From Chloropicon primus (taxonomy: Eukaryota), in contig CP060756.1 of assembly GCA_023205875.1 (NCBI GenBank), positions 1-64,000 of the forward strand: a stretch of 64,000 nt of DNA. Reading direction: 5' to 3'. The position numbers were made by a program, and so were the translations under genes. The notes below the pieces were generated by a model. The model was not told where the DNA came from and did no database searches. It saw only the letters and a list, made by a program, of their open reading frames with translations. This document shows, piece by piece, positions 1 through 5,041 of this stretch (position 1 is the stretch's first letter; the number at the start of each line of letters is the position of its first letter).

Positions 1-228
1 AAACCTAAAACCTAAAACCTAAAACCTAAAACCTAAAAACCTAAAACCTAAAACCTAAAAACCTAAAAACCTAAAACCTAAAAACCTAAAACCTAAAACC
101 TAAAACCTAAAACCTAAAACCTAAAACCTAAAAACCTAAAACCTAAAAACCTAAAACCTAAAACCTAAACCTAACAACCTAACAACCTAACAACCTAACA
201 ACCTACAAACCTACAAGCCTAAACCTAA
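1..228 (+). repeat. Telomeric repeat array (CCTAAAA)n, i.e. TTTTAGG on the G-strand; chromosome left end
   Basis: Tandem CCTAAAA units interspersed with CCTAAAAA from base 1, degenerating to CCTAACAA x4 (170-201), CCTACAAA, CCTACAAG and CCTAAA. Confidence 0.97.
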
Positions 229-1303: not shown

Positions 1304-1921
1304 TCACGCCACTGCCTCCTGCTTCCTCTTCTTCGCCTCCACGAGCTTGCCGGCGTACTTCGAGTCAAAGTTCACCGCGTGCTCCACGATCCTTCGGCAG
1401 ACCGCCCACACCTCCGTCTGGCCCACGAGGTCCTCATCGTCCGCCGAGGCGATCAGGGCCTCTAGGGCCTCCACGATGTTGGCGTGGTCCTCCGCGTGGG
1501 ACGAGATGGCGCTGAACATCCTCAGATTCACTCCGCCATCCGACCCGAACCCGGACCGACTCATGAGTTCCTCCTCCTCCTTGGCGTGAAAGGCGAAGGA
1601 CTTGAGGAGGGATCGGATGTCCGCCGCGCTCCTGCTCTCGGCCGCCGCTCGCATCAGGTCCTCCAGCTCGCCGTGCTCCGCGTCCATGCCCTCGTGCCCT
1701 ACCGAGGGAAGCTCGAAGCTCGGGCACCCCTCGCCGTCGAGTTCCTGGGGGGCCTCGGAGCACGCGTTCCGGACGAAAACGGCCTTGGCGCCGCCGGCCT
1801 CCTCCTCCTCCTTCCGCTCCTCCTCCCCACCGAGGTTGGTCTCGGGCGACGCGATCAGCTGGTCCAGGACCGCTTCGACGTACTGGAAGGCGGCGTGCCC
1901 GACCTAACAGATCAATCAATC

Positions 1922-1952
<31 letters not shown>

Positions 1953-2687
1953 CGACGCGGTTTAGGGGGTGCAAGCCCGCGTCGTTGTCGTGAAGACTCA
2001 CCTTGTTCAGGGAAGGCGATCGAAGCGTCGCGAAGTGGCCCTTGGCGTCGATGACAACGAAGCCCTGGCACCCCAGCTGCGTCGGAAACTTTGGAAAGTC
2101 GTCGTAGTCATCGATGTATGCGTTCTTCACCGTGGACCCCTCGAAGTACCCTTGCTGGAACTCTCGAGCGACCTCCACCGGCCGGCCGTCGACGCAGACG
2201 CAAACGAAGCAAACCTGGATGGAGGTGGCAGTCGGAGTCGAATCCATTCCAATCCCATTGAATCGAACCGAATCAGTGAGTCAGTTCAAGTTGTCACGAT
2301 TGATTTCCTTCTTCTTCGTCGTTGTTTTTGCTCCACTGACCTGGTCCTTTTCGTAGGTTTCGCTCCACTTTCTCATCTGCATCGCTGCCGGCCTGCATCC
2401 TCCTCACCCCGCGTTGTAGAAGTGCACCACGAAAGGCACCCTCTGTTCCCCTGTCCCACGAGCAAAGAGAGCACGAGGAAGATACCCGCGTCAGGTTTAC
2501 CGATCTCCTCCGTTTTGTTGTTTATTGTCGTTGTTGTTTTGTTGTTGTCCTTACCTGGTGGTGGTGTGGTCTGGTTTCCCCAATCCGGCATAAGGACTTT
2601 GTCGTTGTCGTTGTCGTTGTCGTTGTTGTTGTTGTTGTATGGTGTTACCTTAAAGGCGGGACACCTCTTCCCTGTCAACTCCGCCAT
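1304..2687 (-). CDS. Selenoprotein: thioredoxin/redoxin-fold domain (UGGC) fused to hemerythrin; exons 2687-2555, 2450-2341, 2214-2002, 1903-1304; 351 aa
   Basis: Three GT-AG introns with consistent phases. Exon 2 reads VPFVVHFYNAG-TGA(2406-2404)-GGCRPAAMQM; exon 3 has VCFVCVCVD and QLGCQGFVVIDAKG (Trx beta strands); exon 4 has hemerythrin ligand motifs MDAEH, HAKEEEELM, HAEDH, HAVNFD. Confidence 0.85.
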
Positions 2688-3080: not shown

Positions 3081-3979
3081 ATGGAGGTGGTTCGGGCGTG
3101 GCGGGGCCTGAGGGAGGACGACCCGCTGAAGGAAAAGGTGGGGACCGCCATACAGAGGGCAAGGAGGGCGGTCGCGTTGTACAGGGACGAGGAACTCGCA
3201 CTCAGCTTCAACGGAGGGAAGGACTCCACCGTGGTGCTCCACATACTCAGGGCGGCGCACGCGCTGGAATGCGGGGGGAGCGAAAACGAAAACGAAAACG
3301 AAAACGAGGCGTCTAGAGGGGTGGAGTGGCTCTCCTTCTTCTTCCCCTCCCCGGACGACTTCGAGGACATCACTGCCTTCGTGAGGGACGCCTCCGAGGA
3401 CCTAGGCCTGGGGGTCAAGTGGATGGACGGGTCCTTCAAGGACGGGCTCGACACGCTGGTCCGGGGGGGCGTCAGGGCGATTGTCATTGGGACGAGGCAA
3501 TCCGACCCGAATGCCAAGGTGAGCGGCGCCCGGCGCCCGGCACAACGACCGAAGCAAAACTGACTCTCTCTCTCTCTCTCTCTCGCTTGGTTTCGTTTCG
3601 TTTCGTTTCGTTTCTTCTCTTCGCTCCTCCTTGGATCACCACCAGGGTCAGGACGTCTTCTGCCCCTCCTCGGAGGGCTGGCCACCCTTCATGCGGGTGA
3701 ACCCAATCTTGGATTGGACCTACGCGGACGTCTGGTCCTTCCTCTTGCTGATCAAGGTAAGTGGCTCCTGTCCTCTCGTCCCGGTTCGCTGGCTGACTCC
3801 TATCCTCTCTGCCTTGTCCACAGGCCAAGTACTGCGTGTTGTACGATCAGGGGTACACGAGCCTCGGGGGGAAGAAGGACACGAAGAAGAACGACCTCCT
3901 GCTCGACCAGGAGCAGGGAACGTACAAGCCGGCGTACACCCTCACCCAGGAAGACGAGGAGAGGGCGGGGAGGGCTTAG
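3081..3979 (+). CDS. FAD synthetase (PAPS-reductase-like); introns 3519-3645 and 3757-3823
   Basis: [46 protein letters not shown] and ERAGR motifs joined by GT-AG introns. Confidence 0.9.
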
Positions 3980-4075
3980 GCTCGCGGCGCGAAACACCAC
4001 GTCGTCTTCGTCTGTCGATCGACAAAAAAATGTATCACAAACAATCTAATCTATTATTCTTGGCCGCAAAGAAGG

Positions 4076-5041
4076 TTACTTTGTCATCGGCATGTCCTTG
4101 TGCCTCCACATCGCGATCCCTCCCCTGAGGTGCGCCACTTTAGGGAACCCCGCCTGGATGAGCTCGTAACACGCCTTGAGGGACCGGCTCTCCCGGCCAA
4201 AGGCCTTCTCGGGGTCGCTGAAGACCTTGCCCCTCTTGCTCACTACCTCGGTCTCCATGCTCCCCCCGATGCTGCAGCAGCAGATCAGCAGGCGGTCCTC
4301 GTCCTCCGGCTTGGTGGTCGACAGGGCCTCGCACGCGTCCTGCACGAAGTCGGGGTTTCGCTCCGTGGCTTTCATGGCCATCGCGGCGACCGCGATCTTG
4401 AGGGGAAGGGCCAAGGCGGCAAGTCAGAACGAAGCACACGCGCGCACGCACGCGGAGGAGGGGAGCGGGCGCCCACGGAACGAACCAGAAAAAGTCAGAG
4501 CTCGAAAGCCACTCACCTTTTTGAGCGTCTTGAAGAAGGACTGGCCCTGCACCGACCTGTACAGGGGGACGTTCACCGACTCGCTGATGTGGCCGTTGCC
4601 ATTGTACTGGTACTCTGGCCTGACGTCAATCACCACCGCCTTGCCGCTCTTGACCATCTCCTCCACGTCCTCCGGGTCGATCACCGAAAACTTCTCCGAG
4701 TTGGAAAGCCTGATGTGTATGACGGGCCACAAGGTGTACTCCTCCCCGGTCTTGGTCTTCATGGTCGTCAGGCCGCCCTCCTCCCATTCGGACAAGGGGA
4801 GGCCACGCTTGTCGTCACGGACCCAGCGCAGGTTCGCCTTGTCGTACCAGAACCCGGGGTTGTCCTTCATCGTGGTTTCGTCCCCCTTGCCCTCCCCCTC
4901 CGTGGTCGTGGCTCCCAGCCTTACAACCCGGAGCTTCCTCTCTCCTCGAGTTGCGCGTGTCCTCGGGTTCCGCCCCGAGCATGCCCCCCCCTCGAGGACC
5001 CTCGAGGCCCTGCTCCCTGCGCTCACCATCGCTGGCTTCAT
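4076..5041 (-). CDS. Rhodanese-like domain protein, probably plastid-targeted; intron 4516-4397
   Basis: [10 protein letters not shown]...[39 protein letters not shown]; Arg/Ser/Ala-rich transit-like N-terminus. Confidence 0.85.

Follow-up and report, generated by a model that had tools for sequence, protein, structure and literature searches.

We found that a four-exon gene of the very small marine green alga Chloropicon primus encodes a single chain in which a TlpA-type thioredoxin (Trx) domain is fused to a hemerythrin domain, and that an in-frame UGA at the active site of the Trx domain very likely, on comparative grounds, encodes selenocysteine (Sec). The gene lies in the window analysed here, the first 64,000 nucleotides of contig CP060756.1 (assembly GCA_023205875.1), and all positions are those of the window unless another locus is named. 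The gene is real and expressed, and it is mis-annotated in the databases. We regard this gene-level part of the reading as near certain. The features are collected in Table 1.

Table 1. Features of the Trx/hemerythrin fusion gene and its 3' UTR in the Chloropicon primus window.
Feature	Position	Strand	Description
Exon 1	2687-2555	-	ATG at 2687; codons 1-45; TlpA-type N-terminal strand motif LTGKRCPAF and Asn/Asp microsatellite insertion
Intron 1	2554-2451	-	104 nt, GT-AG; joint in X1, X2, X4
Exon 2	2450-2341	-	U-G-G-C motif and Met68 (start of the shortened database model)
In-frame TGA	2406-2404	-	Codon 60, very likely Sec, at the head of the UxxC motif; context VVHFYNAG-U-GGC-RPAA
Cys63	2397-2395	-	Cysteine of the UxxC motif
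Intron 2	2340-2215	-	126 nt, GT-AG; joint in X1, X2, X4
Exon 3	2214-2002	-	C-terminal half of the thioredoxin fold; VCVCVD (C86, C88), QLGCQG
Cys130	2070-2068	-	Invariant third cysteine at cisPro-minus-1; Gln131 at the place of the DsbE cis-proline
Intron 3	2001-1904	-	98 nt, GT-AG; contig loose ends; junction also in P0003/P0170
Exon 4	1903-1304	-	Final Trx helix, then the acidic linker, the hemerythrin domain and a basic tail (KKRK); ends with the stop TGA 1306-1304
Hemerythrin core	1687-1364	-	Ligands H229, H258, E262, H288, H292, H327, D332
Candidate type II SECIS	1265-1215	-	3' UTR; AUGA core, unpaired AAA, mini-stem, UGA on the 3' side

A sequence-only reading of this DNA had proposed a spliced frame of 351 codons with a TGA as its sole internal stop. 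Re-splicing the exons from the window confirmed this frame (1056 nt, 351 codons and the stop), and the predicted mass of the product is 38.6 kDa. Each of the three GT..AG introns contains a CTGAC branch-like word. To assess splicing, we used contigs of public sequencing runs placed on positions 1955-2690. The runs X1, X2 and X4 represent three studies, and the RNA type is the tool's guess, but the contigs are spliced. Introns 1 and 2, whose junctions the sequence-only reading had left for confirmation, appear as joints in the contigs of these three of the four runs (X5 gave nothing). At the third donor the same contigs carry a loose end that corresponds to window positions 1872-1901, i.e., to the start of exon 4, and these loose ends support intron 3. 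In exon 1 the contigs cover 2554-2589 only, with the repeat-rich 5' part outside the directly covered stretch, and the putative start at 2687 rests on the homologue N-termini of the form M-x-LTGK-x-x-P-x-F: MDLTGKTCPPF in the intronless relative L001 and MADLTGKPVPTF in L002, compared with MAELTGKRCPAF in the Chloropicon window.

Further observations concern the exon–intron structure. A (TTG/TTGTCG)n microsatellite at 2599-2638 within the coding part of exon 1 gives an Asn/Asp run, and the loop that holds this run varies in the relatives too. An extra intron from the donor-like word at 2648 to either of two acceptors was rejected, as acceptor 2571 is ruled out by the contig cover at 2554-2589 and acceptor 2597 shifts the frame. 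Intron 2 (2215-2340) is in frame and contains exactly one stop, a TGA. A minor contig of X1 keeps this intron at a depth of 80, compared to 563 for the joint, and the database proteins P0085/P0171 begin inside it. Retention of intron 2 with read-through would yield a 393-aa form with two UGAs; unspliced RNA is the more likely explanation.

The in-frame TGA had been read as Sec, with the reservation that transcripts might splice it out. It turned out that the spliced contigs of X1, X2 and X4 cover the TGA exon in full, with no variant letters listed, and that none of them has a splice joint at the donor-like word GGG/GTGAGG that overlaps the TGA. Of ten acceptors tried with this donor, a single one, giving a 15-nt intron, would leave the frame intact, and no such joint was present. 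The sequence-only reading had also suggested comparing homologues at this site. A metagenome scan for relatives of the Chloropicon gene returned 30 loci, several of which are near-duplicates. In 28 of them, TGA-GGN-GGN-TGY directly precedes the matched part and is in frame with it, and a Cys codon occupies the UGA site in none of the 30. The two exceptions are L030, which is a fragment, and L017, which is without the Trx half. In a quick tree of 58 rows (14 loci, 9 chosen and 35 random), the UGA-bearing loci are distributed among several deep clades. Upstream of the UGA, pN was lower than pS in all 13 pairs that differed, out of 14 tested; for example, 0.08 versus 0.63 for L019/L020, 0.06 versus 0.21 for L004/L015, and 0.46 versus 0.74 for the window and L001. 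Thus, the segment upstream of the UGA is translated. No tRNA genes were found in the 64-kb window.

If the UGA were a true stop or were spliced out, the product would be a 284-residue protein from Met68, or the gene would be a pseudogene. The public models P0003 and P0170 do start at Met68, and a GT donor-like word does overlap the TGA. However, the contigs keep the TGA exon, the UGA and its flanks are conserved in nearly all of the loci, the codons upstream are under purifying selection, and a start at Met68 would remove the central strand of the fold together with the active site. This alternative is largely refuted, and we consider it extremely improbable. The comparisons argue that the retained UGA very likely encodes Sec.

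An element that could direct the recoding lies in the 3' UTR and was not part of the sequence-only reading. The SECIS candidate begins 38 nt past the stop, fits RTGA-N10-14-AA-N-GA, resembles the element of L001, and has the lowest energy of the 10 candidates on both strands of the 64-kb window. It was missed by a stricter first pattern scan and found once one pairing filter was relaxed. When the first 400 nt were shuffled, 8 of 300 shuffles gave any SECIS candidate. The candidate has a bulge near its core, and as free RNA it folds worse than shuffled sequences (z +1.77). Rfam gave no SECIS match in the window; this null is uninformative, because Rfam matched just one of five relatives, and weakly. 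SECIS-pattern elements were found after 13 of the 26 relatives scanned, several of them textbook ATGAC..AA..CGA. A consensus of six sequences held only six pairs, two of them with double changes, and the MAFFT alignments were too poor for a covariance model. Judged by their extent, the X1 and X2 contigs would reach past the element. We strongly infer that a SECIS in the 3' UTR recodes the UGA. In one of the metagenome loci (L017:2300-3100), a hemerythrin half is followed by an intact SECIS with no recognisable Trx half upstream; this copy is possibly a decayed duplicate.

The prediction that automatic annotation truncates the gene held for Chloropicon itself. P0170 (HOP50_03g19710, Chloropicon primus) is identical to residues 68-351, and P0003 (A3770_03p19730) has a single residue changed; each is a 284-aa model that starts at the Met eight codons past the TGA and lacks the active site. 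A profile search gave 567 clusters (50% identity) at E<=0.001. Among the best 150 of these 567, 110 representatives start at a Met or Val just after the UxxC site, 32 start at another place within the Trx domain, and in 6 this domain is absent. The remaining two, P0057 and P0072, span the site with a W. This W is probably UGA read as Trp, because both proteins group with diatoms and the diatom-like locus L026 has TGA at the corresponding codon. The models P0126 and P0234 (Pseudo-nitzschia multiseries, Odontella) keep the N-terminus without the UGGC motif, which was skipped or frame-shifted. They are another way in which annotation hides Sec.

Both domains are present in 137 of the best 150 representatives, the 13 exceptions being mostly short or fragment-like. 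The linker from LGCxG to MDxxH has a median of 111 and reaches 288 residues, and some members carry inserted domains. The members belong to Chlorophyta/green algae, Haptophyta, diatoms, Parmales and dinoflagellates, with Pseudo-nitzschia, Chaetoceros, Odontella, Triparma and Tripos among the named ones. Among genome contigs, 39 pattern matches contained no prokaryotic relative, the pattern being blind to TGA forms. A TGA-tolerant DNA pattern, which recovered 23 of the 30 algal loci, gave 10 matches on contigs in a narrow scan, all of them motif-only with a Cys codon. A narrow scan of viral contigs gave 40 pattern matches and no relatives. In the 64-kb window, 20 six-frame motif matches inspected by eye revealed no other convincing hidden UxxC gene. 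A C-terminal KKRK motif (1313-1345, minus strand) is common to the close relatives, and the motif K-K/R-x-K/R occurs in 29 of the 137 fusion proteins, compared to a shuffle mean of 14.7 and a maximum of 24. The motif is a possible nuclear signal.

The thioredoxin assignment of the sequence-only reading was borne out by a fold model. We modelled the intronless relative L001, with U read as C and aligned with 128 other rows (pLDDT 86.3, pTM 0.72; linker 174-198 at pLDDT <50). Folding a Trx domain from one sequence alone gave no usable model (pLDDT 47). The N-terminal 153 residues of the L001 model match structures of the DsbE/ResA/TlpA type (best 3gl3, Z 17.4, rmsd 2.0, 139 aligned residues); deiodinases, Tpx/BCP and Sco are further matches. 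The Chloropicon protein shares with bacterial TlpA/ResA/DsbE(CcmG) the extended thioredoxin fold (L001 model against ResA/DsbE-type rows, Z 14.6-17.4), the position of the CxxC motif and the N-terminal G-x-x-x-P-x-F strand. In contrast to these proteins, it has Sec for Cys, a GG spacer, a Cys at cisPro-1 and no cis-proline, and it has no membrane anchor, carries a fused hemerythrin and scores below the curated cut-offs. The Redoxin score is 23.4 bits compared to a cut-off of 26.6, and all NCBIfam scores are far below cut-off. The protein begins directly with the fold and by inspection has no leader, from which we strongly infer that it is soluble and intracellular.

The main departure from known Trx-type sites is at the cis-proline. 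In a sequence alignment to one DsbE, QLGCQG aligns with YGAPET, so that Cys130 falls on the cisPro-1 position and Gln takes the place of the cis-proline. The Cys130 column is Cys in 129 of 129 rows, and 144 of the best 150 representatives carry LGCxG; the other six lack that part. The cis-proline column holds Q, S, G, N or M in the family, with the Cys preceding it. By this alignment the family appears to have lost the cis-proline of the fold, with the invariant C130 taking the adjacent position, a feature absent from the sequence-only reading. According to the consulted part of Ren et al. (PMC2665069), the side chain at cisPro-1 is usually no more than 4 Å away from the nucleophilic Cys, and in human thioredoxin the cis-proline keeps the thiolates of the active site from binding metal. 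Because the cisPro-1 side chain usually sits near the nucleophile, the active site is likely to be a three-chalcogen cluster of U60, C63 and C130.

The missing cis-proline is shared by bacterial proteins of another setting. Actinobacterial TlpA/redoxin-like proteins of mer operons (WP_010596916.1, WP_006246580.1) have the same F-F/Y-x-x-G-C-G-x-C site and likewise lack the cis-proline (hhalign probability 94.5% and 84.7%). They differ by an N-terminal leader and by the absence of the third Cys, of Sec and of hemerythrin. In Rhodococcus plasmids, such TlpA/redoxin-like genes with CGEC and no cis-proline adjoin ccdA within mer operons (L033:5842-6348, L034:5833-6357). These two are possibly Hg-binding proteins annotated as disulfide reductases.

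The C-terminal domain, which had been proposed to keep all seven hemerythrin ligand positions, aligns accordingly: H229, H258, E262, H288, H292, H327 and D332 correspond to myohemerythrin H25, H54, E58, H73, H77, H106 and D111. For residues 202-331 of the L001 model, the structural match is myohemerythrin (2mhr; Z 15.2, rmsd 1.9, 112 aligned residues). The first five ligands are invariant in 129 of 129 rows, and of the 111 rows that include helix D, 110 have the final His and all have the final Asp. The domain is predicted to be di-iron. The closest solved sequences are O2-type hemerythrins, and the family shares the four-helix bundle and all seven ligands with O2-binding hemerythrins (2MHR/1A7D, 4XPX, DcrH-Hr); the hemerythrin scores nevertheless lie below the curated cut-offs. 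We take the O2 pocket of myohemerythrin to be Ile28, Phe55, Phe80, Leu103 and Ile107. The Chloropicon residues at these positions are L232, A259, I295, I324 and A328, which are hydrophobic and smaller at two sites. The Ile28 position, three residues after the first His, is Cys in most relatives (92 of 140 rows), where it is paired with Phe55; in Chloropicon the pair is Leu/Ala. Reversible O2 binding is not assured, because Leu stands at the pocket position of this Cys and Ala at those of Phe55 and Ile107. In 108 of 129 rows a Cys is present either at the Ile28 site or within the helix C-D region, and the linker and hemerythrin cysteines of Chloropicon are C200, C212 and C321.

In 18 of 129 rows hemerythrin helix D is missing, and 17 of these 18 share the diatom-type PxG[YF]xQLGC. 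In most of these diatom-clade proteins (P0049, P0076, P0077, P0081, P0132 and others) the sequence stops shortly, by a few residues, beyond a Cys. At the point of the C-D loop where the diatom ORFs end, the full-length P0057 and P0072 carry a second W. The protein sequences suggest that the diatom clade may have a second Sec in this loop.

The gene is the first recognisable one on the chromosome, about 1 kb from its end, where a telomeric array of a 7-mer period (31 copies) occupies window 1-228. A divergent gene with a PAPS-reductase domain (3081-3980, plus strand; weak, E 0.007), presumably FAD-synthase-like, starts about 0.4 kb upstream. It is followed by a rhodanese-domain gene (4076-4960, minus strand) and a MutS/MSH2-like gene (5211 to about 8000, minus strand). 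No functional link between the fusion gene and these three neighbours is evident.

Novelty, which the sequence-only reading had flagged for checking, proved limited at the level of the family. Jiang et al. (2020; PMC7539508) list algal 'TlpA' selenoproteins with a Trx-like and a hemerythrin metal-binding domain, about 80% of the members being Sec-containing. Both domains, Sec and an algal host are shared with the Chloropicon protein, and the name fits, as the fold search on L001 returns TlpA-type structures. The match is one of description and not of sequence, and the Chloropicon protein very likely belongs to the same family. TlpA is mentioned five times in that paper, without a motif, a third Cys, a mechanism or an experiment, and the word 'Chloropicon' is absent from its main text. 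In the literature searched, the Chloropicon member itself is unreported. No report of a Chloropicon selenoprotein was found, and two papers on Chloropicon genomes do not contain 'seleno' in their main text. Likewise, the literature searched contained no functional study of a Sec-Trx/hemerythrin fusion, and the consulted parts of PMC6627142, PMC11092101 and PMC13188914 held nothing on such a fusion. The Ostreococcus tauri 'thioredoxin-fold protein' ostta01g05530 is likewise an algal Trx-fold selenoprotein. From its descriptions (PMC2375036, PMC8834552), identity with our protein is ruled out, as it has 238 aa, the motif SFG-U-FFA and no hemerythrin. UGGC, QLGC and hemerythrin were not found in the supplements of PMC2375036, PMC6627142 and PMC8834552. 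In the part of PMC4919030 consulted, the O2-type hemerythrin of Micromonas pusilla is listed as single-domain only; this entry is possibly a shortened model of the present family. From the sources consulted, what is likely new here is the Chloropicon member, the loss of the cis-proline and the invariant C130, the family itself having likely been listed in 2020.

What the fusion does can be addressed by a mechanism to which we give about an even chance: a reductase driven by Sec, which would hold the di-iron centre of the same chain in the reduced state for the binding or removal of O2, peroxide or NO. A functional coupling of the two domains, by sensing or by reduction of the chain's own met-hemerythrin, had been proposed in the sequence-only reading and is plausible. 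Sec60 would be a reactive selenolate that cycles through an Se-S bond with Cys63 or Cys130 and is recharged by the thioredoxin reductase or glutathione system of the cell. Two electrons would then pass to met-hemerythrin, probably via the linker and hemerythrin cysteines (C200, C212, C321), returning the oxidised form to the Fe(II)2 state, in which the site could again bind or consume O2, peroxide or NO. In this way one chain would serve as an O2/peroxide buffer or sensor that recharges itself. Domain fusion is the rule in the family (137 of the best 150), which we count in favour of coupling, and the common extra thiols on the hemerythrin part may be counted for an electron relay. The loss of the cis-proline speaks against the behaviour of an ordinary disulfide reductase, as far as the consulted part of PMC2665069 goes. 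In the literature searched, we found no direct precedent for thiols that supply a buried di-iron site by two-electron chemistry. Tentatively, and with more doubt than belief, we also consider a selenium/di-iron enzyme with an undescribed active site, in which Sec60, Cys63 and Cys130 would replace the cis-proline arrangement and electrons would reach Fe2 via the hemerythrin Cys or a second Sec.

Two other functions have to be weighed against the self-reducing chain. In one, the hemerythrin domain would sense O2, NO or iron and switch a Sec-Trx domain acting on other proteins, with no electrons passing to the iron. Multi-domain O2-type hemerythrins are mostly fused to signalling domains, often C-terminal (PMC4919030, in part), the linker of the family is long, variable and in some members interrupted by inserted domains, and the excess of K-K/R-x-K/R motifs over shuffles hints at nuclear targets. 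However, no output target is known, and the frequent Cys and possible second Sec on the hemerythrin domain fit an electron relay better. We consider such a sensor unlikely. In the other, Sec60, Cys63 and Cys130, perhaps with Cys88, would bind Cu(I), Hg(II), Zn or an Fe-S cluster in a Sco-like manner, and the hemerythrin domain would store or receive iron. The cis-proline reported to block metal binding (PMC2665069, in part) is absent and an invariant Cys stands beside its place. Sco proteins are among the fold matches. For the metal site we assume a Sco-like ligand geometry. The best plasmid matches in tblastn are TlpA/redoxin-like, and the two inspected lie in mer operons and are also without cis-proline; these matches are nevertheless weak (E 0.04-0.4), five of the eight are of this kind, and two were inspected for context. 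Moreover, near-exclusive use of Sec is typical of catalysis. Metal handling is in our estimate quite unlikely.

The analysis corrects a systematic annotation error, since 110 of the best 150 family representatives begin just past the UGA and lack the active site, and it adds a selenoprotein to Chloropicon, for which the literature searched held no earlier report. The site with a third cysteine and no proline gives a concrete handle on the coupling of a selenol to a di-iron centre. Because the family is widely spread among algae and no Cys form was seen in DNA, it may matter for the selenium and iron physiology of phytoplankton. Should the more tentative reading of a self-recharging selenium/di-iron enzyme hold, one of the most widespread algal selenoproteins, nearly always truncated in databases, would work within a single chain as a met-hemerythrin reductase or a scavenger of O2/peroxide, and it would offer a candidate reason for the selenium need of marine phytoplankton.
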